Of a stretch of 64,000 nt of DNA, positions 13,656-53,868 are shown piece after piece. Numbering within the stretch: position 1 is the stretch's first letter; the number at the start of each line of letters is the position of its first letter. The position numbers and the translations under genes are program-made. Source of the stretch: Escherichia coli 042 (GTDB taxonomy: Bacteria; Pseudomonadota; Gammaproteobacteria; Enterobacterales; Enterobacteriaceae); the NCBI RefSeq assembly GCF_000027125.1, contig NC_017626.1. One strand, given 5' to 3'. The notes under the pieces were generated by a model. It did no database searches. It was not told the origin of the DNA and was given only the letters and a program-made list of their open reading frames with translations.

Positions 13656-13656
13656 T

Positions 13657-13785: not shown

Positions 13786-13814
13786 TAAGCGAAACAGCAC
13801 CGCGAGGAATCAGT

Positions 13815-14431: not shown

Positions 14432-14600
14432 AAAGTGAATTTTGTGATGTGGTGAATGCGGCTGAGCGCACGCGGAACAGTTAAAACCAAAAACAGTGTT
14501 ATGGGTGGATTCTCTGTATCCGGCGTTAATTGTTAACTGGTTAACGTCACCTGGAGGCACCAGGCACTGCATCACAAAATTCATTGTTGAGGACGCGATA

Positions 14601-14977: not shown

Positions 14978-15069
14978 AACAGTTCCGTAATAAATATCCG
15001 GTTTCATTCTTATATGCCAGCAATGGCAGGGATTTGTTCATCCTTAAATCTGTCATGAGGTTAAAACAA

Positions 15070-17541: not shown

Positions 17542-17613
17542 TGTTCAACTGTCGCCGGTTGTGACTGGTATTCTGCAACCGGCGCTCGTCTGATGTAAGA
17601 GATAAAGAAATCG

Positions 17614-17865
17614 ATGAGCGAAGTAATCATGATTGTCTCTCCCGGCAAATGGGTATCCGAAGAGCAGTTAATTGCGCTGAAAGGAATAAAAAAAGGTACG
17701 TTAAAAAAGGCCCGAGAAAAATCGTTTATGGAAGGAAGGGAATATAAGTATGTCGCTCATGACGGTATGCCATGGGATAACAGTCCATGCTTTTACAACC
17801 TGGAAGAAATTGATCGCTGGATTGAGCGCCAGGCATCAGCGAGACCAAGACGTCATCTTACTTGA
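17614..17865 (+). CDS. Excisionase-like small protein (83 aa)
   Basis: Small basic protein immediately upstream of integrase gene. Confidence 0.45.
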   Translation: MSEVIMIVSPGKWVSEEQLIALKGIKKGTLKKAREKSFMEGREYKYVAHDGMPWDNSPCFYNLEEIDRWIERQASARPRRHLT

Positions 17866-17884
17866 CTAAAAGCCACACTAACTA

Positions 17885-19180
17885 ATGAGAGAAGTTGAAA
17901 TGAAATATCCGACAGGCGTGGAAAACCATGGAGGGAAATTACGTATCTGGTTTGTTTATAAAGACGTAAGAGTCAGGGAAAATCTGGGGGTTCCTGACAC
18001 AGCAAAAAACAGGCGCGTTGCAGGTGAACTACGCTCCTCTGTTTGTTACGCAATAAAAACTGGTGTTTTCGACTATGCAAAACAGTTTCCCTCCTCACGC
18101 AATCTGGAAAAATTTGGTGAGGCCCGACAAGATTTAACCATAAAAGAACTGGCTGAAAAATTTCTGGCACTGAAAGAAACTGAAGTCGCCAAAACATCAC
18201 TCAACACATACCGTGCCGTCATCAAAAATATCCTGAGCATAATCGGTGAAAAAAATCTTGCCTCATCGATTAATAAAGAAAAATTACTGGAGGTTCGTAA
18301 AGAGTTACTGACTGGATACCAGATCCCCAAAAGTAACTATATTGTTACACAACCAGGGAGATCGGCTGTAACTGTAAATAATTACATGACAAATCTTAAC
18401 GCCGTGTTCCAGTTTGGTGTTGATAACGGTTACCTGGCAGATAATCCGTTTAAGGGGATCTCGCCATTAAAGGAATCAAGAACCATTCCGGATCCTCTTT
18501 CGCGGGAAGAATTTATCCGTCTTATCGATGCGTGCAGAAATCAGCAAGCAAAAAATTTATGGTGTGTTTCTGTTTATACTGGAGTTCGCCCTGGTGAGCT
18601 GTGTGCACTTGGATGGGAGGACATAGATCTGAAAAATGGAACAATGATGATCAGGAGAAATTTAGCAAAAGACCGTTTCACGGTACCAAAAACACAGGCG
18701 GGAACCAATCGGGTCATTCATCTTATTAAGCCAGCAATCGACGCTCTCCGGAGTCAGATGACATTAACGAGACTGAGCAAAGAGCATATCATTGATGTTC
18801 ACCTCAGAGAGTATGGCAGAACAGAAAAACAAAAATGCACCTTTGTTTTTCAACCTGAAGTGTCAGCGAGAGTAAAAAATTATGGTGACCATTTTACCGT
18901 TGACTCAATAAGGCAGATGTGGGACGCAGCGATAAAACGTGCCGGACTCCGCCATCGAAAATCATATCAGTCGAGACATACTTATGCCTGCTGGTCGCTG
19001 ACAGCTGGTGCTAACCCGGCATTTATAGCAAACCAGATGGGCCATGCAGATGCGCAAATGGTATTTCAGGTATACGGAAAATGGATGTCTGAAAACAATA
19101 ATGCACAGGTAGCTTTGTTAAATACACAGTTAAGCGAGTTTGCCCCAACCATGCCCCATAACGAAGCAATGAAAAATTAA
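17885..19180 (+). CDS. intQ: Prophage tyrosine integrase IntQ (apparently intact)
   Basis: 431-aa ORF with C-terminal tyrosine-recombinase catalytic region (…GVRPGELCALGWEDIDL…HTYACWSLTAGANPAFIANQMGHADAQMVFQVYGKW); adjacent to rspB as in K-12. Confidence 0.85.
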   Translation: MREVEMKYPTGVENHGGKLRIWFVYKDVRVRENLGVPDTAKNRRVAGELRSSVCYAIKTGVFDYAKQFPSSRNLEKFGEARQDLTIKELAEKFLALKETEVAKTSLNTYRAVIKNILSIIGEKNLASSINKEKLLEVRKELLTGYQIPKSNYIVTQPGRSAVTVNNYMTNLNAVFQFGVDNGYLADNPFKGISPLKESRTIPDPLSREEFIRLIDACRNQQAKNLWCVSVYTGVRPGELCALGWEDIDLKNGTMMIRRNLAKDRFTVPKTQAGTNRVIHLIKPAIDALRSQMTLTRLSKEHIIDVHLREYGRTEKQKCTFVFQPEVSARVKNYGDHFTVDSIRQMWDAAIKRAGLRHRKSYQSRHTYACWSLTAGANPAFIANQMGHADAQMVFQVYGKWMSENNNAQVALLNTQLSEFAPTMPHNEAMKN

Positions 19181-38430: not shown

Positions 38431-39252
38431 ATGCGTACAACCATTGCTGTAGTGTTGGGTGCAATTAGTTTGACGTCTGCTTTTGTGTTTGCAGATAAAC
38501 CAGACGTTGCCAAATCGGCAAACGATGAGGTCAGCACCCTGTTTTTTGGTCATGATGATCGTGTGCCAGTGAATGACACGACCCAATCACCGTGGGATGC
38601 GGTTGGCCAACTGGAAACGGCCAGCGGCAATTTATGTACGGCGACGCTGATTGCACCCAATCTGGCATTAACGGCAGGACACTGTTTATTGACGCCGCCA
38701 AAGGGTAAAGCCGATAAAGCGGTAGCGCTGCGTTTCGTGTCAAATAAAGGTCTTTGGCGCTATGAGATCCACGACATAGAAGGCCGCGTTGATCCGACAC
38801 TGGGAAAGCGGTTAAAAGCAGATGGGGATGGCTGGATTGTACCTCCCGCAGCTGCGCCCTGGGATTTCGGTTTGATTGTGCTACGTAATCCCCCTTCTGG
38901 CATTACACCGTTGCCGTTATTTGAGGGAGATAAAGCCGCGCTTACCGCCGCATTAAAAGAGGCAGGTCGTAAAGTGACTCAGGCGGGATACCCTGAAGAT
39001 CATCTCGATACGTTGTACAGTCATCAAAACTGTGAAGTGACTGGCTGGGCGCAAACGTCGGTGATGTCGCATCAGTGCGATACCTTGCCGGGTGACAGCG
39101 GTTCGCCTCTGATGTTGCATACCGATGACGGCTGGCAATTAATTGGGGTGCAAAGTTCGGCTCCTGCCGCGAAAGATCGCTGGCGCGCCGATAACCGGGC
39201 CATTTCTGTTACCGGTTTTCGCGACAGGCTGGATCAACTGTCGCAAAAATAA
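38431..39252 (+). CDS. ydgD: Secreted trypsin-like serine peptidase YdgD
   Basis: Signal peptide; TAGHC and GDSGSP catalytic motifs. Confidence 0.9.
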
Positions 39253-39290
39253 TGTTCAAACGCTGCCCGACAGCGCGGGCAGCGTGTTCA

Positions 39291-39620
39291 TCAGGCAAGT
39301 TTCACCATGATCATTCCAGCCAACAGCAAGACCAGGCCAATCCAGCCTTTACGATTTAACCGTTGACCAAACAAGATCCAACCTGCGGCTAACGTGGCGG
39401 CAATACCAAACCCGCCCCACAATGCATAAGCGACAGACAAGTCGATCCCTTTAACGGCCTGAGAAAGCGCACTAAAGGCAGCCAGCACCGCCGACAGGGA
39501 GAGCAAGCCAAATATTTTGCGACGAAAGCCGTCAGAAAATTTCAAAAAGACGTTAGCAACGATTTCCAGCACGATTGCCAATGCCAGCCAGGCGGCGTGA
39601 ACCCATTCAAACTGCGCCAT
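39291..39620 (-). CDS. mdtI: SMR-family spermidine exporter subunit MdtI
   Basis: 109 aa, 4 TM; overlaps mdtJ. Confidence 0.95.
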
Positions 39621-39972
39621 GGTTCACCTCCAGTTCAGGTTTACGCGCTTTACGGGTACCTGATTTGATCAATACAATCCCGGCCACCAGGGTGGTTAAC
39701 CCGGCAATTTTCATCAGCGATAAACTTTCGTCGAATAACAAAACGCTAAACAAGGTAATAAATAAAATACCGATACCTTCCCACAGCGCATAAGCCACGC
39801 CTAAGGCGATTTTTTTAACGGCGAAAGAGAGAAATATATACGACAGAGAAATCATCACCAGCATTAAAATAAAGCCGCCATTTCCCTCACTGACGCTCGC
39901 CCATTTCATGGACAGCGTACCGGTAATTTCTGTAGCAATAGCCAGGCCTAATAAAATCCAATAAATATACAT
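39607..39972 (-). CDS. mdtJ: SMR-family spermidine exporter subunit MdtJ
   Basis: 121 aa, 4 TM. Confidence 0.95.
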
Positions 39973-40383
39973 TGTCCTTCTCCTGCAAGAGAATTATTTT
40001 AATTTTCGCTTAATTCAGCGAAACCAAAGTAAAGTGGTCAAGCCCCGCGCTTAGCGCAAGCTTTGGCAGAAGAAAGGACTAAAGCGCGTTGCGCCAGTGC
40101 TGCTCACCTACGAGCAAGATAGTGGATGAGGTACGAAGATGGGTAAATGTAGAAAATAACGTCCTGAACAAATTGTCCATAATATTACAATTATCCGCAG
40201 TGTTGCTTCTCGTCATCGCGGATGATAATTGTCCTCGGTAGTTGAACACGCCTGATTTGTATCATAGCTTAAGAATTAACTCAAAATATTTTCACTTCTT
40301 TACCTGAGCGGTTTGATTTTCGTTATGATGACGGAGCGAAAAAGACATTATTATTAGCAAAGGAAGAAAAAACGGGGACAAGC

Positions 40384-40530
40384 ATGGCAAAGCCGATCAT
40401 CACGCTCAATGGCCTAAAAATCGTCATTATGTTGGGAATGCTGGTCATTATTCTCTGCGGTATCCGTTTTGCCGCCGAGATCATCGTGCCGTTTATTCTC
40501 GCATTATTTATTGCTGTTATATATAACTAA
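40384..40530 (+). pseudogene. tqsA: tqsA 5' fragment (first 46 native codons, then island-derived I-Y-N-stop)
   Basis: [46 protein letters not shown] then frame leaves native sequence at 40521. Confidence 0.85.
40512..40520. repeat. attL core direct repeat TGCTGTTAT
   Basis: Identical 9-mer at 51546-51554; joining the flanks restores ...[18 protein letters not shown]... of TqsA. Confidence 0.65.
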
Positions 40531-40593
40531 TTTCACTTAACGCATTGATTTAATTAAATGATTTGCACTACAAAAAGTGCCATAAATCGCAAA

Positions 40594-40617
40594 ATGACTA
40601 CACCAGTGACTACACCG
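40594..40617. repeat. Arm-type tandem repeat ATGACTACACC-AGTGACTACACCG near attL
   Basis: Same 23-24 nt tandem motif present at 51395-51418 near attR in same orientation. Confidence 0.55.
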
Positions 40618-40934
40618 TTCGGTGCACTGTATGAAACAACGTGGAACAAATAGACACAAGAAATATACAGGCGGGTCATCTTTCCAGGGGGAAGCGCGCT
40701 AATTCATGAGGGGCGTTAATGTTGATATGGGGATCCCCATAACGGGGCTACCGGATTTTTTTTCCGGTTAACTGTTAATCAGGCTGGTGGGCTTTACCTG
40801 TTTTGTAGGAGTGGTCATTATGACCATTCAGACAATGACCTTAATCAGAACTTTTCGCTAAAAAATGACGTTGGTCACGTCGTCCGGAAAGCACAAAATC
40901 CCGTCAATTTTTAATTAACGGTTAAACCGTCTTT

Positions 40935-40980
40935 TGTCACGGCGTGTCACTGGTTGTCACTCTCCGTCACGGTATGTCGC
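40935..40980. repeat. Five GTCAC-type half-sites phased at exactly 10 bp
   Basis: tGTCACggcgtGTCACtggttGTCACtctccGTCACggtatGTCGC; GTCAC is the reverse complement of the GTGAC of the arm repeats. Confidence 0.5.
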
Positions 40981-40986
40981 TACTCG

Positions 40987-41268
40987 TTAACGCCGTAACC
41001 GCTCCGGCTTCTTCCAGTGGTACGTAATTTTCTCCGTTTCCCGATACAGTGCCACGCGGCGATTGTAGGCCAGCATTTCAAGAACGCGGATCCGTATGTT
41101 GCGCATATCCACATCATTAAGCTGGATACCATCACGGCGCATCACCTCAGCAACCACACGCGCGTAATTTTCGGCGGTCACGCTGTCCGGCTGCGTGGCC
41201 TGTTCGTCATGCTGCTGGCTGATTCCGGTAACGCGGCGGATTAATCCCAGTAGTTCGGCTTCTGTCAT
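40987..41268 (-). CDS. Hypothetical island protein (93 aa from MTEAELLGLIRR)
   Basis: ORF; start chosen downstream of cos copy 1 with GGGGG SD-like upstream; longer ORF-track N-terminus would read through cos. Confidence 0.35.
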   Translation of the reverse strand: MTEAELLGLIRRVTGISQQHDEQATQPDSVTAENYARVVAEVMRRDGIQLNDVDMRNIRIRVLEMLAYNRRVALYRETEKITYHWKKPERLRR

Positions 41269-41301
41269 TGTGCCCCCATCGCTCTGATAGTCTGGTGTCG
41301 T

Positions 41302-41366
41302 CGGGTCCTTCCTGGAATTATGGCCCGTTACGGGGCGGCGACCTCGCGCGTTTTCACTATTTATGA
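41302..41366 (+). other. Lambda-type cos site copy 1 (cosN GGGCGGCGACCT at 41333-41344), followed by ACCGGACAT repeats at 41383-41479
   Basis: cgggtccttcc...gttacgGGGCGGCGACCTcgcgcgttttcactatttatgaaaatttt closely matches recalled lambda cosQ-cosN-left-end sequence. Confidence 0.7.
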
Positions 41367-41547
41367 AAATTTTTCGGGATCCATGTCCGGTTTCTCTGCA
41401 AGTTAACCATATGAAAAATATAAAAACATGCTTTCCATGAACCGGACATGCGCAAAAAACAGACACTAAAACCGGACATCGAACCAGTTAACCGAAAGTG
41501 TGCACAAATCACATGCATTGCTGCGAGTGATTAACAAGTTATCGGCT

Positions 41548-41982
41548 TTACTGTTCTGTATCGGCTGATTGCTCCATGCTGGCACGGCGAACGCTTATGG
41601 CATGACGCCACCCAGCCAGAAAGCCAGCCATTTTATTTCGTGCCTTGCTCACATCTTCCGGTGAATAGCCGTAAATCTGCAAACCTTCATCAAATCGATG
41701 TTCTGTTTCTTCACTGGAGTACTCGTCACGCTCAGATGAAAGCAGCCTGGCAAACATAATTTTTTCCAGCGCACTGGTTTCTACGTGATATCTGATGGTC
41801 TCAAGACGGCTTTTACCTGAAGACCAAAGCAATGTATGCCCGATGTGATAACCGCCAGACTTTCCGCGATCCGCATTAAGATACGGCATCCCCTGTTTGG
41901 TCCATGCGCGAATAGTGGTTCTGTTAACCTTGAAATGTTCAGCTATTTCCTGCTGACTTACAAAACAAGCTTTATCAATCAT
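41548..41982 (-). CDS. Nu1-like small terminase / packaging-specificity protein (144 aa)
   Basis: N-terminus VSQQEIAEHFKVNRTTIRAWTKQGMPYL parallels lambda Nu1 VNKKQLADIFGASIRTIQNWQEQGMPVL winged-HTH. Confidence 0.65.
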   Translation of the reverse strand: MIDKACFVSQQEIAEHFKVNRTTIRAWTKQGMPYLNADRGKSGGYHIGHTLLWSSGKSRLETIRYHVETSALEKIMFARLLSSERDEYSSEETEHRFDEGLQIYGYSPEDVSKARNKMAGFLAGWRHAISVRRASMEQSADTEQ

Positions 41983-42049
41983 AATGTTACCTTAACTGCA
42001 TGGTTAAATATTAATCAAGTGGTGGTGGTGTCACCTTCACGGAAAAACG

Positions 42050-42115
42050 TCATAAATAGCGAAAACCCGCGAGGTCGCCGCCCCGTAACGGGCCATAATT
42101 CCAGGAAGGACCCGT
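42050..42115 (-). other. Lambda-type cos site copy 2, inverted relative to copy 1 (cosN complement at 42072-42083), 88 bp upstream of terS
   Basis: Reverse complement reads ...gttacgGGGCGGCGACCTcgcgggttttcgctatttatga; 63/65 identity to copy 1. Confidence 0.7.
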
Positions 42116-42137
42116 AAAAAAGCCGGATTTCTCCGGC
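42115..42137 (-). terminator. Rho-independent terminator ending capsid operon
   Basis: Minus strand GCCGGAgaaaTCCGGC followed by T-tract. Confidence 0.6.
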
Positions 42138-42143
42138 CTTGTC

Positions 42144-42557
42144 TCAGATGTTTTTCAGTATGCGATCGATGTCGCCGTCATCGCCCTGGTTTCTGCCATC
42201 GTATGCCATGCCAGCTGATACGGCTTGCGGGCTGTGCATGTCCATAAAGTTTTCAAAGGCTGCGGTAAGTTCCGGCGCAACCTTCGGACGTTCCTGCTCT
42301 ATGGTCATGCTAAGGATGCTTTTAGCCGTACCAACATCGATACAAGGCACGTTTGCCATTGCACGCAACAGCGGCTGATAGTCTTTATGCTCATGAAGCG
42401 CCATAATCGCATCAGCGCGCGGCTTGTCCTGCTCTTCCAGTTTGTTTAGTTGATGTACGGCCTCATAGGTTGATAAACCTCTGTCAGCCATTGCCCGCGC
42501 TTCGACTTTAAATTTACTCGCCAGCGGTAGCGTCATGATGCTTTCATTCGTTGCCAT
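42144..42557 (-). CDS. Hypothetical island protein (137 aa), last gene of capsid operon
   Basis: ORF co-directional and tightly spaced after D-like gene. Confidence 0.45.
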   Translation of the reverse strand: MATNESIMTLPLASKFKVEARAMADRGLSTYEAVHQLNKLEEQDKPRADAIMALHEHKDYQPLLRAMANVPCIDVGTAKSILSMTIEQERPKVAPELTAAFENFMDMHSPQAVSAGMAYDGRNQGDDGDIDRILKNI

Positions 42558-42569
42558 CGTTCCCCCTGC

Positions 42570-42905
42570 TTATCGGGCCAGCGGCTGAACGGATACGCCG
42601 GAACCCGCAAAGGCGGCGCATTTTTTCGCATCGGTGTCGACGCTCTCAGGCCAGTTAACGGCGGCAATATTGAATATCCCCGTCTTGTAACACTGTGCTG
42701 ATTTCTGCTTTGACGTGTCCACAGGGTACGAGGTCAGATAAACAGCCTTGCCAGATTCCTGACCATCCCACGGCTTAAACTCGCCATTGTCTGCCAGCAT
42801 CAGCGGGGTAAATTCCTGAATAACGCCAGCATCAGCGGCAAAATGTACCAACGTCGTGGATACCTGCTGACTGCCTGCAAATAACTCAATGTATGGAGTG
42901 TCCAT
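42570..42905 (-). CDS. Head decoration protein, lambda gpD homolog (111 aa)
   Basis: TPLMLADNGEFKPWDG...YKTGIFNIAAVNWPESVDTDAKKCAAFAGSGVSV parallels lambda D TPLMLDTSSRKLVAWDG...[35 protein letters not shown]. Confidence 0.8.
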   Translation of the reverse strand: MDTPYIELFAGSQQVSTTLVHFAADAGVIQEFTPLMLADNGEFKPWDGQESGKAVYLTSYPVDTSKQKSAQCYKTGIFNIAAVNWPESVDTDAKKCAAFAGSGVSVQPLAR

Positions 42906-42917
42906 AGAATCCCCCCG

Positions 42918-43973
42918 TTAACCAATTTTGACGGTAACAAATTTGCGAATATCTGCCGGTACCGGCTGCGGTGCACTGTGTGTCTGCACGTACTCAATCG
43001 CCGGATCGCCGTCCTCAATCCAGTTTTTCGGGTAAAACATGTTTTGTGTTGCGCCCGTTCTTACCGCTTCCTGATCCATTATCGCACCATAGGCCACCAG
43101 CCCTTTATTGTTGGTGTTACCCAGGACCAGCAAATCAGGCTCAAGGAAATATTTTTCGGTACCATCGCTGTCAGTGTATTTGCCGGAATAGACGATAAGG
43201 GCCAGATCACCAAGATAGCCTTTAAAGCTCACCACTTCGCCCAGGTTTTTACAGGCCAGTTCGGCGGCGGATTCTGAACCACGGGAAAGATCGTACAGCT
43301 CACGGAATTTTTTAAAGCTGCGTAATGTGCGCCATACCTCAGCGCCCATAATCATGACGTTTGCGGGGCAACCAGCCTGATCAGCATAAAGCTCGATGTC
43401 ATAGATTGGGTCGTGCATGTCTTTATCCTGCTCGGACCATTTTTTACCCTTGGCCTGCTCTATGATGCAGTTTTCCGGTATTTTCCAGTCGATTTCATAG
43501 CGTTCTATGCCTTCGCCCTCAATGATGTTTTTTCCGGTCGTTACCGCATTCACCGCCAGCCATTCCACGCGTGCCTTAATGGCGTTTATCTGGCGGCGCA
43601 TGTTGCCAGTAATCAGGCGCATACGGCGATAGGTAGGGTCGTTAAGCTGTGCCGGATCTTCTCCAGCCATGCGCATGATGGTTTTCGTTGGATCGATTTC
43701 GTGCTTTGGCTTCATGTAGCCAGGTTTGATTGTGCTGGTTTCGTACCCTTTATCGCGCTGAACCTGGCTACCCACCATAGGCGAACAAAACGCCGACATG
43801 GTGACTTCTTCAATGTCCAGGGTATCCAGCATGATGTTTTGCGTGCTGAATGTCGCCACGTTCGGGAAAAACAGCGTGGTAAACAGAGGGCTGAATTTAA
43901 AATCCGCAATATCCCCGCGATTCAGGTACATGAAAAGCTGGTTAGTGTTAAGTGCCGTTGCTTTGCCTGCCAT
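42918..43973 (-). CDS. Major capsid protein, lambda gpE homolog (351 aa)
   Basis: KPGYMKPKHEIDP, DPTYRRMRLITGNMR, VSFKGYLGDLALIVYSGKY, YPKNWIEDGDPA align along recalled lambda E. Confidence 0.85.
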   Translation of the reverse strand: MAGKATALNTNQLFMYLNRGDIADFKFSPLFTTLFFPNVATFSTQNIMLDTLDIEEVTMSAFCSPMVGSQVQRDKGYETSTIKPGYMKPKHEIDPTKTIMRMAGEDPAQLNDPTYRRMRLITGNMRRQINAIKARVEWLAVNAVTTGKNIIEGEGIERYEIDWKIPENCIIEQAKGKKWSEQDKDMHDPIYDIELYADQAGCPANVMIMGAEVWRTLRSFKKFRELYDLSRGSESAAELACKNLGEVVSFKGYLGDLALIVYSGKYTDSDGTEKYFLEPDLLVLGNTNNKGLVAYGAIMDQEAVRTGATQNMFYPKNWIEDGDPAIEYVQTHSAPQPVPADIRKFVTVKIG

Positions 43974-44179
43974 TATTCACCCCCATAATTTTTATGCATC
44001 CCAAGCGCCGCAAGTAAATAAGAGCGTACAAGTGAACCTATCGACGGCTCCGGCGTCATCAGCGGATCCAGTCCAGCCGCAACGCCAGCTTCATAGTTTT
44101 TTTTGTGGCGCTGCTTGAGCACCTCCACGATTTCGGGGCTTATGTACACCGAAACACCGCCTTTTTTCTCTTCAGCCAT
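43973..44179 (-). CDS. Small protein upstream of capsid gene, possible ribbon-helix-helix fold (68 aa)
   Basis: MAEEKKGGVSVYISPEIVEVLKQRHKK; GAGGA SD; stop overlaps capsid start. Confidence 0.35.
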   Translation of the reverse strand: MAEEKKGGVSVYISPEIVEVLKQRHKKNYEAGVAAGLDPLMTPEPSIGSLVRSYLLAALGMHKNYGGE

Positions 44180-44208
44180 AGTAAGAAATTCCTCTTCGAC
44201 TAAAAAAA

Positions 44209-44236
44209 TCATAACTGGATGTTTATCCAGTTATGA
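44209..44236. promoter_or_regulatory. Perfect 12-bp inverted repeat TCATAACTGGAT-gttt-ATCCAGTTATGA in capsid-operon promoter region
   Basis: Seen directly; 30 bp upstream of operon start; second palindrome ATTGCATtttATGCAAT at 44248-44264. Confidence 0.5.
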
Positions 44237-44388
44237 TTATAATCAGAATTGCATTTTATGCAATGATATTGAGTTATGTTGCAAATTATGAAATGATTAT
44301 CCCGATCACGAACGCCAGTGCATCCAAAAACCTCATATGCAAAAGCCCGATAAGAACCCTCTGACCTTATCGGGCTTTTTTTGGGCGC

Positions 44389-44410
44389 AAAAAAGCCGGA
44401 TTGCTCCGGC
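44389..44410 (-). terminator. Rho-independent terminator after 74-aa gene
   Basis: Same GCCGGA-loop-TCCGGC module plus T-tract; preceded by second hairpin 44345-44382. Confidence 0.55.
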
Positions 44411-44430
44411 TATGTGTGCTGTGTGCTGGC

Positions 44431-44655
44431 TCAGTCTCTGATCTCTTTCAGAAATTCTATCAATGCATCTATCTGTTCAGGATTTACCGCCAGCATTTCA
44501 CCGGATAGAGCACATCTCACAAAACCATGCTGATCCTTTTCAATCAGTGCGCCCGTCTCCAGGAATGCGCGGTAATCATTGATGCTCATCGTCTCCATGT
44601 TGTCAGCATGGTATTTATCACGCTGTTTTAATATCTCATCAAATTTCATCGGCAT
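44431..44655 (-). CDS. Hypothetical island protein (74 aa)
   Basis: ORF bracketed by terminators. Confidence 0.4.
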   Translation of the reverse strand: MPMKFDEILKQRDKYHADNMETMSINDYRAFLETGALIEKDQHGFVRCALSGEMLAVNPEQIDALIEFLKEIRD

Positions 44656-44751
44656 TGTTTTTTTCCTCTGTTGTGTCTGTTTGTTTCAGATAGTAACTAT
44701 GCCTGACCGTGACGAAAACCCGGTAATGCGCCATACCGTTTCAACTGGTGC

Positions 44752-44774
44752 AAAAAAAGCCGGATTTCTCCGGC
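44752..44774 (-). terminator. Rho-independent terminator after PerC-like gene
   Basis: GCCGGAgaaaTCCGGC plus T7 on minus strand. Confidence 0.6.
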
Positions 44775-44781
44775 TGTTTGA

Positions 44782-45054
44782 TTAGCTGTCCTGGTAATTG
44801 CGCCATATTTCATCACCAGCACCATCTATACCCATTTCGGCATAAGTGCGATCGACTGCCTTTTTCAGGTCTCCGAAATTATCCGGCGGCTCCGGTGCCC
44901 TCTGTGCCTTCCTTGAACATTCCAGCCGTCGCATCGTGATGTGATGCCGTTCCTTGTCTGTCTCCACCAGCTGCATGACTTCACCCCATCGCGCCGCCGC
45001 CCTCCGGTAAAAGCCTTTCGCCTCCAGTTCCTCCGCTATGCGGTCATGTACCAT
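44782..45054 (-). CDS. PerC/Pch-family transcriptional regulator (90 aa)
   Basis: AEELEAKGFYRRAAARWGEVM resembles recalled Pch/PerC signature (…LEAQGLWRRAAARW…); GAGGGGG SD before ATG. Confidence 0.55.
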   Translation of the reverse strand: MVHDRIAEELEAKGFYRRAAARWGEVMQLVETDKERHHITMRRLECSRKAQRAPEPPDNFGDLKKAVDRTYAEMGIDGAGDEIWRNYQDS

Positions 45055-45064
45055 CGTCACCCCC

Positions 45065-45475
45065 TCAGAACGAAATATCATCACCGTAAGGGTCATCGCC
45101 TCCCGCTGGTGGCTGATTACCCTGTGTGCCTGTGGTTTTGCGTCTGTTCCCGCCTGGACGTGCCGCGCGGGCACTGATTACGCTGTCTGCGATAACCTGC
45201 CAGCCCTGCCGCGTTTCTCCGTTCTGTCCGGTCCACTGGCTTACCTGCATCGTGCCGGATACGCTGGCAACATCGCCTTTTTGATGTTTAGCCAGGAAGT
45301 CGGCCTGTTTGCCAAATGCGATGACCGATAACCATAACGTCGCCTGTCCGTCCTGTGCCTGGCTGCATGGCAAAGATACCGCCATACGCGCCAGCGTCAT
45401 CGGTGTGCCCTTGCTGGTCTGTTTTACCTGCGGGTCGTCCACCAGCCGCCCGTAAGCGGCTATCTGTGCCGTCAT
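45065..45475 (-). CDS. ssb: Single-stranded DNA-binding protein (SSB)
   Basis: OB-fold region and Gly/Pro-rich tail ending DDPYGDDISF (cf. E. coli SSB C-terminal DDDIPF). Confidence 0.8.
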   Translation of the reverse strand: MTAQIAAYGRLVDDPQVKQTSKGTPMTLARMAVSLPCSQAQDGQATLWLSVIAFGKQADFLAKHQKGDVASVSGTMQVSQWTGQNGETRQGWQVIADSVISARAARPGGNRRKTTGTQGNQPPAGGDDPYGDDISF

Positions 45476-45723
45476 AATTCCACCTCTCCGGTTTTAACGT
45501 TGATGGTTGTTACCTGTTCCGCTTCGGCAATCTCCCGTTCTGTCAGCGTGGCAAAGTTTGCCGCCGCCGTGGTCATGAATGCGCTTATCAGGTCGGGATG
45601 TTCCTTCGCGTATCCTTCCCGCGTGTGGCGGTCTATCGTTCTGATTGCCACCTTTAAGGTGTGCTCAGTCATGTCTAACGCTTTATATTTTGGCTCTGTT
45701 CTGTCTCTGCGTTTTTGGGTCAT
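45472..45723 (-). CDS. Hypothetical small protein between ori and ssb
   Basis: ORF; start uncertain (45723 or 45672). Confidence 0.3.
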   Translation of the reverse strand: MTQKRRDRTEPKYKALDMTEHTLKVAIRTIDRHTREGYAKEHPDLISAFMTTAAANFATLTEREIAEAEQVTTINVKTGEVEL

Positions 45724-45734
45724 TTCTCGCAACC

Positions 45735-45926
45735 TCTCACTTTTTCGCCTCACTTTTTCAAGCGTCTCACTTCGTCGCAGTTGGGATTTTCGGTTTTTCT
45801 ATGTGTGTGTTTCATAAGTATTTTTTTACCCCTCACTTTTGAGGATGTATACAGGTCGAAAAGTGAGGGAGAGCGGGCTAATTTTGGCCCTCTTTCTATC
45901 CCCCTCGCTTTTGCTCCTCACTTTTA
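45735..45926. repeat. Iteron array (CTCACTTTT, at least 6 copies, both orientations) with AT-rich spacer: putative island replication origin
   Basis: Copies at 45735, 45748, 45766, 45832, 45858 (inverted), 45916; directly 3' of pri-rep gene. Confidence 0.55.
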
Positions 45927-47324
45927 TAGCGGCGCTACATCATCCCCATCGATACGAATAACCCCATCTTTTTCCAGCTTGTACAGCCAGCGCCGGAAGT
46001 TTTTCATTTCATACCCCAGCTTTTTCATGTCATCACGTAACAGCGGGATCGTGCACTTGTCGCCGTTCTGTGTGCGTGAACGGATGCACCCCCATAGCGC
46101 GGTATGGTTTTCCGTCTTGTTCCCTGCCTCCTCGATGCGCTCCAGTTCAACAGGAGGGCGCGGATCATCCACCACCACCAGCGACGTGATTAATTCACCG
46201 TCAGCGTCGGTAAAAAGCTCCACCACGCGTAAGTCATATGCGGCTTCTTTGAGTTCCTCCGCGTCCTTCATTTTGGTGCATGAGATAACCAGCGCTTCGC
46301 TTCCTGCGTCCTCCCTGCGTATCCGGTATTCAGCATCCAGCGAAGCACGAAATGCACTGGAACCGCGCGCGCCTTTCGTCTCATCCTTGCCGGAATGGTG
46401 AACCACCAGCACCGTGGCCCCTGTGCGTCGTTTCAGTTCGTCACAACCACGGATAAACGCCCCCATATCACGGGAATCATTTTCATCATTCCCACCAAAG
46501 CAACGCGCCAGCGTATCCAGAATAATCATGCGTACAGGTTTACCCGTTTCCCGCTCCACCTGACGGGCAGCGATAACCATTTCATCAACATCAAGCGGGG
46601 CAGCCGGAAAGATGGGGCGGTTTACCAGATACAGATTTTTCACCTGCTCATCGTGCACAACCTCCCAGGCTTTTACACGACGCGGAACACCTATACCGCC
46701 TTCACCAACCACATAGAGAACCGCACCATGTGCAACCCTGCGGCCTCCCCACTGGCGACCAGTGGCAACATGGCACGCCCACGATCCAGCAAGGAATGAT
46801 TTATAGGACCCGCTAGCCCCGTATATGCTGCATAGCGATACCGCCGGAATAATCCCCTTAACCACGTAATCCAGTTGCGTGTCGTATCCGGTAGATCCAA
46901 CGCTCATCGGTAGCGTGGTTTTTCGCTGGTGTTTTTTTTCTTCCGCCGGCTCTTTCCCGCGCACCCGTTCCAGGTATTCGCGCCAGTTCTCCCGCATATG
47001 GCTGTGCATCCCTTCGGGGTAATAATTCGCATCAGTTACACCCGCCGCCGCCAGCTTGTGCGCAATGGCATTAATATTTGATGGCCTGATGTGGCCTGCC
47101 TTGTACAGCCGGACACAATAGCGCCCCTCGTCGATGATTCTCAGGTCTGCCAGTTCATCCAGTTGATCATCAGCCAGCACAACGGGAGGCACATTATCGC
47201 CAGCCAGTCGCCCGTCCTGTTCCTGCCACTGTTTCGCATGTGCCCAGGCATCACTACCCGCAAAAATAATGACTTCGGTCATCTTGTCGTAAGGCTGTTT
47301 TTTTAAGTTCGGTGCGCTTTTCAT
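45924..47324 (-). CDS. Primase/replicase-type AAA ATPase (RepA/AAA_25-like, 466 aa)
   Basis: Walker A GASGSYKS, Walker B MIILDTLARCFGG, VVHHSGKDETKGARGSSAF sensor region. Confidence 0.8.
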   Translation of the reverse strand: MKSAPNLKKQPYDKMTEVIIFAGSDAWAHAKQWQEQDGRLAGDNVPPVVLADDQLDELADLRIIDEGRYCVRLYKAGHIRPSNINAIAHKLAAAGVTDANYYPEGMHSHMRENWREYLERVRGKEPAEEKKHQRKTTLPMSVGSTGYDTQLDYVVKGIIPAVSLCSIYGASGSYKSFLAGSWACHVATGRQWGGRRVAHGAVLYVVGEGGIGVPRRVKAWEVVHDEQVKNLYLVNRPIFPAAPLDVDEMVIAARQVERETGKPVRMIILDTLARCFGGNDENDSRDMGAFIRGCDELKRRTGATVLVVHHSGKDETKGARGSSAFRASLDAEYRIRREDAGSEALVISCTKMKDAEELKEAAYDLRVVELFTDADGELITSLVVVDDPRPPVELERIEEAGNKTENHTALWGCIRSRTQNGDKCTIPLLRDDMKKLGYEMKNFRRWLYKLEKDGVIRIDGDDVAPL

Positions 47325-47620
47325 TTCTTGCCCCTGAATCCGTTAACCATGGTTTTCAGCTTCTGGATGTTTGCCCGTGCCCTGGCGTTGCTGGTGGGCA
47401 CGTTATGCGGCGCGGTCTGTACCAGAGAAAAATCACGCCGGAACTGATAAACAGGCATCACGCAATCATATTCGTAACCTTCACGGCGGTAGGTTACGCG
47501 CCGTTCTTCCACGTCCTTAATCATTACCGTGCCGCCGTACTGGTCGCGGTAAATATCACCGCGCGTAAATTTAGGGTGAGTGTTGCCACTGGCAGTTAAG
47601 CCAGAATATTTAAGTTTCAT
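47321..47620 (-). CDS. Hypothetical island protein (99 aa)
   Basis: ORF in tight operon; stop overlaps pri-rep start. Confidence 0.45.
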   Translation of the reverse strand: MKLKYSGLTASGNTHPKFTRGDIYRDQYGGTVMIKDVEERRVTYRREGYEYDCVMPVYQFRRDFSLVQTAPHNVPTSNARARANIQKLKTMVNGFRGKK

Positions 47621-47625
47621 TATTT

Positions 47626-47859
47626 TTATTCTCCGGTGTGCTGTTCTTTATATCTGTCGTGCAATAGATCTATTTCTTGCAGTTCCATTATTACAGGCTC
47701 AAGAAGCGTTATTAATGCTGTGGCAATTCTTGATTTTTGTTTGTCGCGTTCATTGTCGCCAAGTGTTTCAAGCCATATGCGCAATATTTCCATCATGTTT
47801 TCACTGTGAGAAAGTGCAAGAAATGCGCGGTCTATTGTTTGGTGGTAAATATCACGCAT
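47626..47859 (-). CDS. Hypothetical island protein (77 aa)
   Basis: ORF in operon. Confidence 0.4.
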   Translation of the reverse strand: MRDIYHQTIDRAFLALSHSENMMEILRIWLETLGDNERDKQKSRIATALITLLEPVIMELQEIDLLHDRYKEQHTGE

Positions 47860-48319
47860 GGCTTACATCCTCAGGAAATTTTCTTCTATAACGCGCCTCT
47901 GCCACATATTCCGCATAATCGGCGGCGATATTCAGTACATCAAGCCCCGTTGATTTATATTCTCTCGTGGAAAGTAAGAAAAAAGCCGCTCTAATAAGTT
48001 CTGGCATTGACGAAAGCGCATCAGCCGCATCATCAGGAACGCCGGAAAATTCCTGTTTCAGGGAATTAAAACGATCATCACGCATAACCCCCCCCCCATT
48101 TTCACAATCAGCAATCAGGATAGCTTTGGCCTCATTCAGCGCCGTATCAGCACTAAATTGCATGACAGCCAGTGAGTGAGGAACGAAAGCACCGGCATAT
48201 TCTGTTTCGCTGGTGGCGTGCTTATGTGCCCTGTCCGCGATAACAGAAATATCAATCAGCGCGTGCATCAGCGTTTTGATGGCTTCGGCGGCTGCGTCCG
48301 GTGTGGTTTTATTGTGCAT
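47852..48319 (-). CDS. Hypothetical island protein (155 aa)
   Basis: ORF in operon. Confidence 0.45.
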   Translation of the reverse strand: MHNKTTPDAAAEAIKTLMHALIDISVIADRAHKHATSETEYAGAFVPHSLAVMQFSADTALNEAKAILIADCENGGGVMRDDRFNSLKQEFSGVPDDAADALSSMPELIRAAFFLLSTREYKSTGLDVLNIAADYAEYVAEARYRRKFPEDVSHA

Positions 48320-48521
48320 AAAGCATCCCCTGAATATTCGTGTTAATCATTCCGGCACGTTTTGTGATTTCCTGTAATGATTCCCTTGTGGCGACAATTG
48401 CTTCATCTGGTAAGTGGTAATTACACACCACGCGACCTTTATCCACATTGACCAGTAGCTGCCCTGTGAATTTCTCACGAAACTGAATGCGGTTAAGGTC
48501 AGTAAGTGACAGATTAATCAT
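48309..48521 (-). CDS. Hypothetical island protein (70 aa)
   Basis: AGGAGG immediately upstream of ATG at 48521. Confidence 0.45.
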   Translation of the reverse strand: MINLSLTDLNRIQFREKFTGQLLVNVDKGRVVCNYHLPDEAIVATRESLQEITKRAGMINTNIQGMLYAQ

Positions 48522-48711
48522 GGCGCACCTCCTGACGAATACGGGCGGCAAATACAGCAACACAACCGGACGGGCAACGGTTACGCGCTTCGCGTTCCGT
48601 CCAGGCGGTTACGTGGATGATTTGAGATTCTCCGGCACTCAGTGCCAGAAAACGCCACACAAAGGCCGTTTGTGTGTGTACAAGGTGTGGTATATGATTT
48701 ACAGCAACCAT
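48514..48711 (-). CDS. Hypothetical island protein (65 aa), first gene of leftward operon
   Basis: AGGAG SD upstream of ATG at 48711. Confidence 0.4.
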   Translation of the reverse strand: MVAVNHIPHLVHTQTAFVWRFLALSAGESQIIHVTAWTEREARNRCPSGCVAVFAARIRQEVRHD

Positions 48712-48804
48712 AACGGCTCCTAGTTTACGTTGTTGGTTAGAAGCCCTGCGAGTGGTAACGACACTTGCGGGGCTTTGTCTTTTCATCGATTACCTTGATA
48801 AAGG

Positions 48805-48884
48805 TGTCAGCCACTATATTAGTAACGGGTGTCAGCCACGTCAATAGTGTTTTTCCGTTTTCTTGTGTGTATACTGTCAGCCAC
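48805..48884. promoter_or_regulatory. Three direct repeats TGTCAGCCAC in divergent promoter region, with TATACT -10-like element
   Basis: Repeats at 48805-48814, 48830-48839, 48875-48884. Confidence 0.5.
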
Positions 48885-48905
48885 CTAATAACGAGGAAAT
48901 CAGAT

Positions 48906-49085
48906 ATGGCAACAAAAGCAGTTAATGCAAAATCCAAAAAGCTTGAGGCTCGAGTACCACACGCAATAGCTGATGCTGTAGAAAATTTAAAGGAAGATGG
49001 CGAAAGTACAGGGCAATTTATCGTTTCGGCACTTGAAGGCGAGATCAAACGCCGCCAGCGCCGCAAGGCCAAAGAATCAGAATAA
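48906..49085 (+). CDS. Ribbon-helix-helix (CopG/Arc-like) putative repressor (59 aa)
   Basis: KKLEARVPHAIADAVENLKEDGESTGQFIVSALEGEIKR fits beta-strand/helix/helix RHH pattern; divergent from main operon. Confidence 0.5.
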   Translation: MATKAVNAKSKKLEARVPHAIADAVENLKEDGESTGQFIVSALEGEIKRRQRRKAKESE

Positions 49086-49127
49086 TCACTATCAGCGCCG
49101 TGGTGTGAGGTATTACGGCGCATTGCT

Positions 49128-49316
49128 ATGCAGGACAACACAATGACCGATAAAGAATTGACCAAAACATTATCACCGGCACGGAAAAGACGGCGCAGAA
49201 AGATAGAGCATGAATCAGAAAGATTCGCACCATGTGCTTTTGCCCTTGAGCAATTCCTTAAAGAGTACAGGGAAAAGCGCTCATTGCAGGTATGGCAACG
49301 AACTGAACCAGACTGA
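49128..49316 (+). CDS. Hypothetical small basic protein (62 aa or shorter from MTDKEL)
   Basis: ORF followed by hairpin plus T7 at ~49410-49440. Confidence 0.3.
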   Translation: MQDNTMTDKELTKTLSPARKRRRRKIEHESERFAPCAFALEQFLKEYREKRSLQVWQRTEPD

Positions 49317-49585
49317 TTGCATTGCCCACCAGCCTGATAGCGGCTATCATCCCCGTGCTTATGTTTGGGATCACACACACAAACGGCGCAGCGGGTTATC
49401 TGTTCAGAAAGGCGGCTCCATTTCGGGGCCGCTTTTTTTATACCTGAAAAACCCCAATTTTGTTGTTTTTCAGTTTCACCAGGGCGAACGAATCCCCGCC
49501 CACGTTCTGGCGTATATTCAATCTTCATGGTTATAGCTCTGTGTTCAGATGATTGATGTGTGGCGGCTGCGTGCCGCCAGCGTGA

Positions 49586-49774
49586 TTAATGAACTGCCTT
49601 GCAGCTATCCTTCCAGGCCAGAACCTCGGATAAAGACCAGCCAACGGAACGACCGCCAAGTTTACGACGTGATGGGAATTGTCCGGCCTTTTCCAGGCGG
49701 TAGCGACACGTACGGCTAAGGCCGGTTAGTTTTTCGCATTCTTTTTCACGTATAAACCGATCAGTGCTTAACAC
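49586..49774 (-). CDS. alpA: AlpA-family excision/transcription regulator
   Basis: 62 aa MLSTDRFIREKECEKLTGLSRTCRYRLEKAGQFPSRRKLGGRSVGWSLSEVLAW. Confidence 0.8.
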   Translation of the reverse strand: MLSTDRFIREKECEKLTGLSRTCRYRLEKAGQFPSRRKLGGRSVGWSLSEVLAWKDSCKAVH

Positions 49775-50048
49775 TATTGCCCCCCCTTTCGTTTCTTAAA
49801 GAGTCATCAGGTGTCTTATTGTGTCGTATTGTTCCCGCTAGAGTGATGAATGGCAAATATTGAGGATGTATGATTTACAGAAAATGAAACAGTAAGAATA
49901 AAATCTTTTAAATTCATGTTAATACAAAGGCATAAAATATTGTTTCATGCCTTTTTTCTCGCTCTTTAAAGAGTGATTCGCTAGTGTATAAAAAACCAGT
50001 GACACATTAAAAATCAGCCACTTATAAATCTGTATGCTTTTTCGCCTC

Positions 50049-50123
50049 TTGTTCGTGGTTGTTCCACATTGTTGCTCATTGTTGCACGTTGTATCTGTTC
50101 GCATATACAGTATGCGCATACTG
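50049..50123. promoter_or_regulatory. Five TTGTTSC-like repeats at ~10-bp spacing plus 16-bp perfect palindrome CAGTATGCGCATACTG (50108-50123) in int-alpA intergenic region
   Basis: Seen directly. Confidence 0.4.
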
Positions 50124-50140
50124 AAAAAACACGAAAAAAA

Positions 50141-51370
50141 TTATTTTCTTCTGGCTACTGGTAGCGTGGTTACGTTTTCATGTGTTCCCGCCAGTATCCC
50201 TAACCGCTCCGTCCACATATCCAGCGCATTGCGTTTAGCATCCAGATAACGGGAATGATTATAAACTCGCTGCATTCCTGGCATCTGGTGGCCTGTAAGC
50301 TGCTCCACGACATGCGGATCAACGCCTAAATCGTTCAGCATGGTTGTAAAGGTGCGCCGGATGTCATGCAGTGACCAGTGAGGATGATTAAGCCTCCTGT
50401 GCGCTAATCTTCCATACTGCGATACGCTGGCCTCCTGTTTCACTTCCCCCAGCAATAAGCCCGTGTGCCTGTTCTGCTCCACCAGCTGCGTGACGAACGG
50501 CAGGATCGCTTCCGGTATGGGCCGGAATATTGCGACCTTCGTTTTGCTGTGCTCCTTCGGAACGGTCCATAGCATTTCCGTAAAATCCCACTCCCCGATC
50601 TCCGATAACCTCAGTTCTACCGTTCTGGCTCCGAAGACAATCAGGAGGCGGATTAACGCGACGTAGTAAGGGGAGAATATTTTTTTGTCCAGTGCCTGCA
50701 ATAATTCGCCAAGTTCTTTGTTACTTAAGACACGTTCGCTTATATCCGGTTTTTTCCCAACGTCCGCCACGTTCAGATCGTCCAGAACGTTGCTGATTGC
50801 ATAGCGCCGCCTACGGCAGAACTTAAGCGCCTGTTTGCACGCCTGTAGCACGAATCCGGCAGTAACAGGCGTTCGCTTTGCCACCTGGTCAAAACAGGCC
50901 AGCCAGTGCCGTAGCTCGCATTTATCCAGCGGCATAGCACCAATCTGCTGTATTACGTGATTATTAAGTCGCCTTTTCAGGGCGATATAATCCACGCGGT
51001 TTTCCTTTACGTAATACTCAAGCCAGTAGGTGAGCGCATCGCCAACCGTTACCGGCTTTAACGCTTCCTGTACGGTGTAATTAAGCTCATGACGTGGATT
51101 TTTCCCCTCTGCCAGCCATGCGCGACACTGGGCGGCTTTTTCCCTGGCTGATTTCAGGCTCAGATCAGGATAACTTCCCAGCTTAATGCGTTCGGGTCGT
51201 GTCTCCCTTCCCGTTCCGGCCCTGTATGTGAAATACCAGGTCAATTTCCCTGATGTTAAATATTTCACGCTCAGGTTTCCGCCATCACTATAAAACGTGT
51301 TTTTCTCCGCTGGCTTACCATGAAGTTTCCTTAGCAAGGTATCGCTCAGTTTGTTCATTGCTCTGCTCAC
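50141..51370 (-). CDS. int: P4-type tyrosine integrase (start GTG 51370 or ATG 51358)
   Basis: 409-aa ORF; catalytic region ...HDIRRTFTTMLNDLGVDPHVVEQLTGHQMPGMQRVYNHSRY; adjacent to attR. Confidence 0.9.
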   Translation of the reverse strand: MSRAMNKLSDTLLRKLHGKPAEKNTFYSDGGNLSVKYLTSGKLTWYFTYRAGTGRETRPERIKLGSYPDLSLKSAREKAAQCRAWLAEGKNPRHELNYTVQEALKPVTVGDALTYWLEYYVKENRVDYIALKRRLNNHVIQQIGAMPLDKCELRHWLACFDQVAKRTPVTAGFVLQACKQALKFCRRRRYAISNVLDDLNVADVGKKPDISERVLSNKELGELLQALDKKIFSPYYVALIRLLIVFGARTVELRLSEIGEWDFTEMLWTVPKEHSKTKVAIFRPIPEAILPFVTQLVEQNRHTGLLLGEVKQEASVSQYGRLAHRRLNHPHWSLHDIRRTFTTMLNDLGVDPHVVEQLTGHQMPGMQRVYNHSRYLDAKRNALDMWTERLGILAGTHENVTTLPVARRK

Positions 51371-51394
51371 GTTTTACCCCCTCTTTACGAAAAA

Positions 51395-51418
51395 GTGACT
51401 ACACCAGTGACTACACCG
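51395..51418. repeat. Arm-type tandem repeat GTGACTACACC-AGTGACTACACCG near attR
   Basis: Matches 40594-40617. Confidence 0.55.
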
Positions 51419-51545
51419 ATCGTTGCACAAAGGGCTACAACGTGAAACAAGCTGGAACAAGGAAAATCACAAATCTGTTGATAATCAAAAACATAATGCA
51501 CAGCCTGAAACATTATGAAACAGCAAAAAACACCAAATGATAAAA

Positions 51546-51554
51546 TGCTGTTAT
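51546..51554. repeat. attR core direct repeat TGCTGTTAT
   Basis: Identical to 40512-40520. Confidence 0.65.
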
Positions 51555-51567
51555 TCTTAACCCGCTG

Positions 51568-52452
51568 GTGCAACACATGGTCCGCTGGCGAGTGCCGCGT
51601 GTACTGGCGGTGTCGATTTTGATGACCATCATCGTGATGGCGATGGTGTTGCTGTTAGCTTATCTGGGTTCCGCGCTCAACGAGTTGACGCGGACGTTAC
51701 CGCAATATCGCAACTCTATTATGACGCCGCTGCAAGCGATTGAACCGTTGTTGCAACGCGTAGGGATTGATGTCTCAGTTGACCAACTGGCGCATTACAT
51801 TGATCCGAACGCGGCGATGACGTTGCTCACCAACTTATTGACGCAGTTATCTAATGCCATGTCATCAATATTTTTATTGCTGCTGACGGTGCTGTTTATG
51901 CTGCTCGAAGTGCCACAATTGCCCGGAAAATTTCAGCAAATGATGGCGCGTCCGGTTGAAGGGATGGCGGCGATTCAGCGTGCGATTGACAGTGTTTCTC
52001 ATTATCTGGTGCTGAAAACAGCCATCAGCATCATCACCGGCCTGGTCGCCTGGGCGATGCTCGCCGCACTCGATGTTCGCTTCGCTTTTGTCTGGGGATT
52101 GCTGGCCTTTGCGCTTAATTACATCCCTAATATTGGTTCAGTTCTCGCAGCAATTCCCCCTATCGCTCAGGTACTGGTGTTTAATGGCTTCTACGAAGCG
52201 TTGTTGGTGCTGGCGGGATATCTGCTGATTAATCTGGTCTTCGGCAATATTCTGGAGCCGCGCATCATGGGACGTGGGCTGGGGCTTTCGACATTGGTGG
52301 TATTTTTGTCGTTGATTTTTTGGGGATGGTTGTTAGGACCGGTGGGTATGCTGCTTTCCGTGCCGTTGACAATTATTGTCAAAATTGCGCTTGAACAAAC
52401 AGCGGGAGGTCAAAGCATCGCCGTTCTGTTAAGCGATCTCAATAAAGAGTGA
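51568..52452 (+). pseudogene. tqsA: tqsA 3' fragment (lacks first ~55 codons; internal GTG/ATG present)
   Basis: [26 protein letters not shown]... continues TqsA frame to native stop. Confidence 0.85.
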
Positions 52453-52476
52453 CGGCCTCCGCAGAGGCCGTCAGGG

Positions 52477-53868
<1,392 letters not shown>

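Follow-up and report, generated by a model that had tools for sequence, protein, structure and literature searches.

The tqsA gene of Escherichia coli 042, which encodes a putative exporter of autoinducer 2 (AI-2), is split by a phage satellite. We analysed a window of 64,000 nt from this strain (NC_017626.1, assembly GCF_000027125.1), in which the 344 codons of tqsA are interrupted after codon 46 by an island of 11,034 bp. The neighbourhood of the split gene is the E. coli mdtJI, tqsA and pntBA region, and the two pieces together span exactly 40384 to 52452 from start to stop. We consider it very likely that the island is a phage-inducible chromosomal island (PICI) in a dedicated attB within tqsA, and that it has left a null allele with a silent 3′ remnant which excision would restore.

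The junctions could be placed to the base. On the left, the open reading frame (ORF) 40384..40530 (+) encodes MAKPII...FIAVI, the 46 native TqsA residues, followed by Y, N and a stop (48 aa in all). On the right, the native sequence restarts at L47 (51556), leaving 298 native codons and the stop. The ORF 51568..52452 (+), of 294 aa, is the native frame from V51; GTG 51568 is native codon V51 and ATG 51577 is native codon M54. The 9-bp core TGCTGTTAT, at codons 44-46 of the gene, is repeated exactly at the two ends, and over the longer TGCTGTTATWYWTAAC the attL and attR copies are identical at 13 of 16 positions. Removal of the island in silico (40384..40520 joined to 51555..52452) gave an uninterrupted 344-aa TqsA that differs by one residue from the TqsA of PDB 7NB6. 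The preliminary description of this DNA had TqsA truncated by an inserted island after 46 native residues and the 3′ part open with candidate starts at GTG 51568 and ATG 51577. Both statements agree with the ORFs and junctions, the remaining native codons being 298 plus the stop and not the approximately 295 given there. A fusion ORF with the island on the 5′ side was ruled out, as the attL-side ORF stops two codons past the core. The stop of the 5′ piece is polymorphic (40525-40548): in a 54-aa variant, also found in O157:H7-named records, ...IAVIYN becomes ...IAVIYNLFHLTH, six residues longer. From the downstream frame of the window, a TAA to TTA change would account for this variant.

Junctions were counted among 5,426 complete E. 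coli genomes. The identical attL junction was present in 245 and the attR junction in 246, and the rebuilt 200-bp empty-site junction in 5,171, so that about 4.5% of complete genomes carry the island in tqsA. Proteins identical to the 48-aa and to the 291-aa product of the window were each called on at least 1,000 public contigs, and the 54-aa variant likewise. The Prokaryotic Genome Annotation Pipeline (PGAP) annotates both tqsA pieces as incomplete pseudogene fragments in strains 300033 and PCN033, with the label 'pheromone autoinducer 2 transporter, incomplete' for the 5′ piece in strain 300033 and 'AI-2 transporter TqsA, incomplete, missing N-terminus' for the 3′ piece. Furthermore, tqsA has been reported both as one of the core genes that integrating prophages disrupt (Bobay et al. 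2013, PMC3603311) and as a new candidate for regulated gene integrity (RGI), disrupted without restoration (Mageeney et al. 2020, PMC7192596). The disruption of tqsA and the family of the element are already known from the literature and routine annotation, and the only novelty is the particular mosaic of known modules described below.

The integrase of the window is 99% identical to that of strain 300033, and integrases of islands in tqsA are 98-99% identical. Three cargoes stand behind this integrase at tqsA: the mosaic of the window, a primase-type PICI in strain 300033 and a capsid-forming PICI in PCN033. Since the same integrase and att sequences precede the PCN033 element, at least three cargoes use the int-attP module at one position of tqsA, and the module is common to two satellite classes. 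The window island is like those of strains 300033 and PCN033 in att core, arm sequences, orientation and split tqsA, and unlike them in cargo. The 3′ tqsA pieces of the three carrier hosts differ by 12-13 nt, with the frame intact in all three. A sister integrase from O157:H7, 92% identical to that of the window, uses another attB, between phoQ and roxA, and the CFT073 island, with the same layout, occupies this same site. The core of the O157:H7 island is AAATATGTCC, and its arm repeats (TGACTACACCATTAACTACACC; L001 2990-3090 and 14030-14200) differ from those of the window (GTGACTACACCAGTGACTACACC). Amino acid differences between the two integrases cluster in the first ~60 residues. The O157:H7 matches had first been taken as tqsA islands; this was ruled out by their location between phoQ and roxA with the sister integrase. 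The sequence comparisons identify tqsA as the dedicated attB of this satellite integrase. The PCN033 element (L003 1-13100), behind the same integrase at the same tqsA position, carries HK97 capsid, protease, portal, head-tail connector, HNH, TerS and TerL genes.

The features of the island are collected in Table 1. PHROG scans covered 20 ORFs of the island, and names were also taken from PGAP annotation of related islands. Nearly every gene of the island is read from the minus strand, and tqsA from the plus strand. A tyrosine integrase stands at one end, with a specific att site and direct repeats, and an alpA-type regulator lies downstream of int, in the same position as in EcCICFT073. The island has its own replication protein followed by a putative iteron-type origin, and a module for hijacking of packaging, formed by the Rpp-type protein and a lambda-type cos site. 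At 11,034 bp the island is small, within the range of about 10-15 kb for PICIs. As far as sequence can test, it has every property of an EcCICFT073-type PICI. Head functions found in the PHROG scans were capsid, decoration and TerS-like only; no tail, lysis, portal or terminase large-subunit gene was found among the 20 ORFs. No tRNA was found in the window by tRNA scan, which rules out a tRNA-targeting island.

Table 1. Coordinates of the split tqsA gene and of island features in the E. coli 042 window.
Feature	Position	Strand	Remarks
tqsA 5′ fragment	40384..40520	+	native codons 1-46; native promoter region and Shine-Dalgarno sequence retained
attL core TGCTGTTAT	40512..40520		9-bp exact direct repeat shared with attR
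integrated island	40521..51554		11,034 bp; EcCICFT073-family PICI phage satellite, mosaic origin
left attP arm	40591..40666		tandem motif GTGACTACACC/ATGACTACACC; 76% identical to right arm
small conserved satellite ORF	40987..41466	-	phrog_1561 over last 93 aa; 282-nt homologues annotated elsewhere
second lambda-type cosN-like site	41333..41356	+	2 mismatches
Rpp-type protein, 144 aa	41548..41982	-	TerS-like N-terminal DNA-binding domain
lambda-type cosN	42060..42083	-	exact match to GGGCGGCGACCTCGCGGGTTTTCG, just upstream of rpp
137-aa head-module protein	42144..42557	-	weak match to C-terminal part of head maturation protease/scaffold
head decoration protein, lambda gpD-like	42570..42905	-	phrog_49, 1.5e-27; PGAP name
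major capsid protein, lambda gpE-like, 351 aa	42918..43973	-	phrog_29, 1.5e-107; PGAP name
PerC-family transcriptional activator, 90-aa version	44782..45054	-	phrog_994, PGAP name; mechanical ORF reaches 45174
single-stranded DNA-binding protein	45065..45475	-	phrog_44, 9.7e-40
iteron cluster CCTCACTTTT	45741..45925		four direct copies and one inverted; immediately 3′ of replication gene
replication protein, RepA-family helicase, 466 aa	45924..47324	-	phrog_2850, phrog_906; PGAP name
DUF4222 protein and small conserved satellite ORFs, one Icd-like	47321..48563	-	PHROG scans, PGAP names; no match to a defence system
YlcI/YnfO-family ORF	48765..49085	+	NCBIfam YlcI_YnfO_N
AlpA-type excisionase/regulator, 62 aa	49586..49774	-	phrog_2790, 2.5e-17
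tyrosine integrase, 409 aa	50141..51370	-	phrog_1, 1.4e-71; reads away from attR
right attP arm	51392..51467		same tandem GTGACTACACC motif
tandem stops TGA TAA	51538..51543	+	tqsA frame, one codon before core; close ORF 51253-51540
attR core TGCTGTTAT	51546..51554		9-bp exact direct repeat shared with attL
tqsA 3′ fragment	51555..52452	+	native codons 47-344 and stop; frame intact

EcCICFT073, from E. coli CFT073, is the prototype Gram-negative PICI (Fillol-Salom et al. 2018, 2019). The window island follows its gene order: int, alpA, small ORFs, the DUF4222 gene, the replication gene, iterons, the single-stranded DNA-binding protein, PerC, capsid, decoration protein, the 137-aa protein, Rpp and a terminal small ORF. 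The likeness extends to the lambda-type cosN sites and to the size of ~11 kb; EcCICFT073 covers 77% of the window island at 82-95% nucleotide identity. EcCICFT073 was described with a capsid homologue, c1499, and a decoration protein, c1500 (PMC6092414; PMC6739421), and with two cos sites and the packaging-redirecting RppA (PMC6739421). The 144-aa Rpp-type protein of the window shares 99% identity with its positional counterpart in EcCICFT073, and from its position and TerS-like domain the gene would correspond to c1503 (rppA). No cosN match is expected by chance. The two sites are inverted and flank rpp, and the copy at 42060-42083 matches the left end of lambda exactly; the arrangement recalls the two cos sites described for EcCICFT073. 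Unlike the window island, EcCICFT073 lies in the interval from roxA to phoQ, where it does not disrupt a gene. It encodes a 584-aa primase, whereas the replication protein of the window is like the helicase of the O157:H7 island. Its integrase is of the sister type, with ~92% amino acid identity to that of the window as measured on the O157:H7 TW14359 island at the same site.

The sequence of the island was composed of parts found elsewhere. Its ends (40512-42041 and 49055-51554, comprising the packaging end and the att/int/alpA module) are 98.6% identical to an island that strain 300033 carries in tqsA. The middle part (42042-48783) instead matches the phoQ-roxA island of O157:H7 at 99.5% identity. 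These identities mark the island as a recombinant of known modules. The exact combination of modules occurred in no complete E. coli genome of the collection, where the best coverage was 82% of a 12-kb query. The stretch ~48784-49054 is without counterpart in the O157:H7 and strain 300033 islands; part of it is matched by EcCICFT073 (83%) and by the PCN033 island (98%).

We propose that Int, acting via arm-type sites in the 76-nt arms, recombined attP with the TGCTGTTAT core in tqsA, and that the outcome would be a null allele of the gene. Both arms presumably hold arm-type integrase binding sites. The 5′ piece would still be transcribable and translatable, giving the 48-aa peptide. Since the two cores do not differ and neither int nor alpA is disrupted, Int and AlpA would restore tqsA exactly on excising the island. 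As in the EcCICFT073 satellite family, such excision would be expected to follow induction of a helper phage. Every component that EcCICFT073 is known to require for helper-dependent excision, replication and cos-packaging is present in the island, and the mosaic as a whole may be competent for excision and mobile.

In the cryo-electron microscopy structure of TqsA, H1 (T7-F29) of the five protomers is entwined round the fivefold axis and forms the major cytoplasmic contact, and H2 (A31-W57) lies horizontal in the inner leaflet and crosses H5 (PMC9475539). The pocket into which AI-2 was docked is part of the C-terminal domain and comprises Y196, K200, P237, N238, E280 and M284 (PMC9475539). 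With the break after I46, the remainder of the protein is cut off from H1 and from the initial 16 residues (A31-I46) of H2. The Pfam AI-2E_transport model (PF01594) matched the rebuilt TqsA with 267.7 bits over model positions 2-326, and the 294-aa piece with 236.7 bits over positions 40-326, with positions 2-39 lost. No single polypeptide now holds the full-length domain, since the codons for residues 1-46 lie 11 kb from the others. The sequence indicates that the split tqsA is very probably a null allele. Deletion of tqsA in K-12 was reported to increase biofilm formation, motility, intracellular AI-2 and lsr expression (Herzberg 2006, as relayed in PMC9475539). Because that deletion changes biofilm, motility and intracellular AI-2, an altered AI-2 or biofilm phenotype would be a reasonable expectation, by analogy, in the strain that carries the island.

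A gene switched off by integration and restored by excision could also be a regulatory device, with a choice of target that benefits the element or the host, for instance by way of raised intracellular AI-2, of lsr expression or of biofilm. Under the published RGI criterion, a Pfam score of attB at least 1.1x the attL/attR score denotes disruption without restoration (Mageeney et al. 2020, PMC7192596). For tqsA the ratio is 267.7/236.7 = 1.13, and stops lie on both island sides of the core. Also as in RGI, there are several integrations at one position by a tight integrase clade (three cargoes, integrases 98-99% identical, host tqsA alleles 12-13 nt apart). The disruption thus fits the published sequence criteria for an RGI candidate, and is like the RGI cases mlrA/yehV, comK and sigK in that a domain is cut at a fixed position with no replacement sequence and excision would restore it. 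The occurrence in many genomes, the listing of tqsA as an RGI candidate by Mageeney et al. (2020, PMC7192596) and the identical 9-bp cores, which permit precise restoration, speak for such a switch. In classical RGI cases, however, excision is developmentally or physiologically regulated in cells that survive, and no such regulation is known for tqsA. Regulation is doubtful here because satellite excision accompanies helper-phage lysis: PICI excision is tied to helper induction, usually followed by lysis, and a restored gene would rarely be used. Furthermore, only ~4.5% of genomes carry an island at tqsA, nothing that connects AI-2 with satellite biology came to light in this analysis, and a recurrent single attB is equally expected from plain site specificity. 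We therefore regard a regulatory switch as unlikely.

Islands in dusA reportedly replace the displaced 5′ end of that gene, which is kept intact. In contrast, the tqsA island has tandem stops before the core and does not restore the gene. It does resemble the islands of dusA-specific integrases, which insert at the 5′ end of a host gene (Farrugia et al. 2015, PMC4482086), in that a conserved protein-coding gene is entered close to its 5′ end.

A stronger adaptive proposal makes the AI-2 exporter the dedicated target of the one int-attP module that ordinary and capsid-forming PICIs have in common: while integrated, the satellite would turn the exporter off and benefit from higher intracellular AI-2 and lsr expression and from changed biofilm or helper-prophage induction. 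The effect would be modulated either by excision in survivors or by a low level of TqsA lacking H1 and H2, made from ATG 51577. We consider this combination very unlikely.

The preliminary description had further suggested that a truncated protein might be driven from island sequences. In this explanation the 3′ fragment would be expressed from a promoter in the spacer between int and the core, with a start at GTG 51568 or ATG 51577, and its product would have residual or altered transport activity. In its favour, the 294 codons form an unbroken frame in the window and in two further carriers, and gene callers report the 291-aa product on the many public contigs mentioned above. The product would begin with the positively charged MVRWRVPR, an N-terminus expected to remain in the cytoplasm; neither H1 nor H2 spans the membrane, and the docked AI-2 pocket is among the parts retained. 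However, an intact frame is expected after a recent insertion and is uninformative on expression. V51 and M54 are native codons of any uninterrupted tqsA, and the candidate starts were therefore not created by the insertion. Pairing with the anti-Shine-Dalgarno sequence was +1.5 kcal/mol for GTG 51568 and -2.8 kcal/mol for ATG 51577, no better than for the 34 internal ATG/GTG codons of the 3′ fragment (mean -1.85 +/- 2.6). The reference, nine real starts of the window plus the native tqsA start, ranged from -5.7 to -12.4 kcal/mol, with the native tqsA start at -5.7 kcal/mol.

Signals for transcription were equally unfavourable. A consensus scan of 51000-51800 found no sigma-70-like site, and consensus scans for promoters and terminators round attR and attL detected no promoter on the plus or the minus strand. 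In a position weight matrix scan of the + strand at 51300-51600 the best score was 6.9 bits, below the window-wide mean of 7.15 (best per 300 nt); the native tqsA upstream region scored 9.65. The integrase gene is transcribed the other way, and the YlcI/YnfO ORF, the only family-supported island ORF on the tqsA strand, lies ~2.5 kb upstream of attR and is separated from the 3′ piece by the convergent int. Because int reads away and the only family-supported + strand ORF is far upstream, any transcript of the 3′ piece must start in the 184-bp spacer between int and the core.

The spacer is spanned by the ORF 51253-51540 (+), which is in the same frame as the 3′ piece of tqsA. PGAP calls a 60-aa version of this ORF in other genomes (51358-51540 here), which has no PHROG family. 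The spacer frame is open in the sister island too, probably merely due to conserved attP arm DNA. An N-terminus supplied by the island, or a fusion ORF with the 3′ piece, is ruled out by the in-frame TGA TAA at 51538-51543. Translational coupling to the 60-aa ORF is unlikely, because that ORF has no PHROG family and overlaps the arm sites and the restart codon ATG 51545, which is nearer to the stops than the candidate starts, is out of frame. A product from either start would also be without H1, the major pentamer contact, and most of H2, which crosses H5. With stops, Shine-Dalgarno pairing, promoter scans and the direction of int all unfavourable, expression from island sequences was not borne out, and we hold it to be highly improbable. 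The split, the truncation and the open 3′ frame of the preliminary description stand; it had missed that the site is the dedicated attB of a satellite integrase and that the split is a frequent, published polymorphism. From these signals we infer that the 3′ piece is a silent remnant and not a new gene. An accidental split, by off-target integration, an assembly artefact or an unrelated insertion, is practically excluded, since the same junctions in 245-246 complete genomes are explained neither by chance nor by misassembly and a direct-repeat core and conserved arm repeats lie beside an intact integrase.

Some points weigh against a null allele with a silent 3′ remnant. The silence of the 3′ piece is argued solely from missing canonical signals, and the consensus scans are insensitive: no clear int promoter was found either, though int must have one. 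H1 and H2 are not membrane-spanning and the AI-2 site is retained, so that a truncated product is topologically possible. The role of TqsA as an AI-2 exporter is itself putative, resting on indirect evidence.

Within the island, the direct copies of CCTCACTTTT are ~84 bp apart, with one pair closer, and the inverted copy is at 45859-45868; the iteron cluster at 45741-45925 is presumably the origin of replication of the satellite. Three copies of a 30-nt repeat with a hairpin (AAAAAAGCCGGATTTCTCCGGC...) separate gene blocks of the island (42113-42142, 44386-44415 and 44750-44779) and are probably terminators or regulatory sites. A mechanical ORF of 263 aa at 48737-49528 (-), without PHROG or PADLOC family, overlaps the + strand YlcI/YnfO ORF and also the place where PGAP annotates, in related islands, a truncated Icd-like pseudogene. 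PADLOC scans of ten small island ORFs found no defence system, and an Rfam scan of 39000-53000 at E <= 0.1 found no RNA family. Elsewhere in the window, the end of another mobile element (7365-19180) adjoins rspB. This element carries an ISNCY-family transposase (7365-8678), a RecE-like protein of 835 aa (15034-17541) and a tyrosine integrase of 431 aa (17885-19180), and may be a lambdoid prophage that could serve the satellite as a helper.

The tqsA allele would be of wider interest only if docking at tqsA served the satellite or if the 3′ remnant were expressed, and neither is supported. The integrases of the window and of the sister island form a natural pair for studying integrase site specificity. 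E. coli 042 would be a natural tqsA null that carries an EcCICFT073-type satellite; loss of the island by excision would give tqsA back. The allele, shared by ~4.5% of complete genomes, could matter for comparisons of AI-2 and biofilm between E. coli strains.

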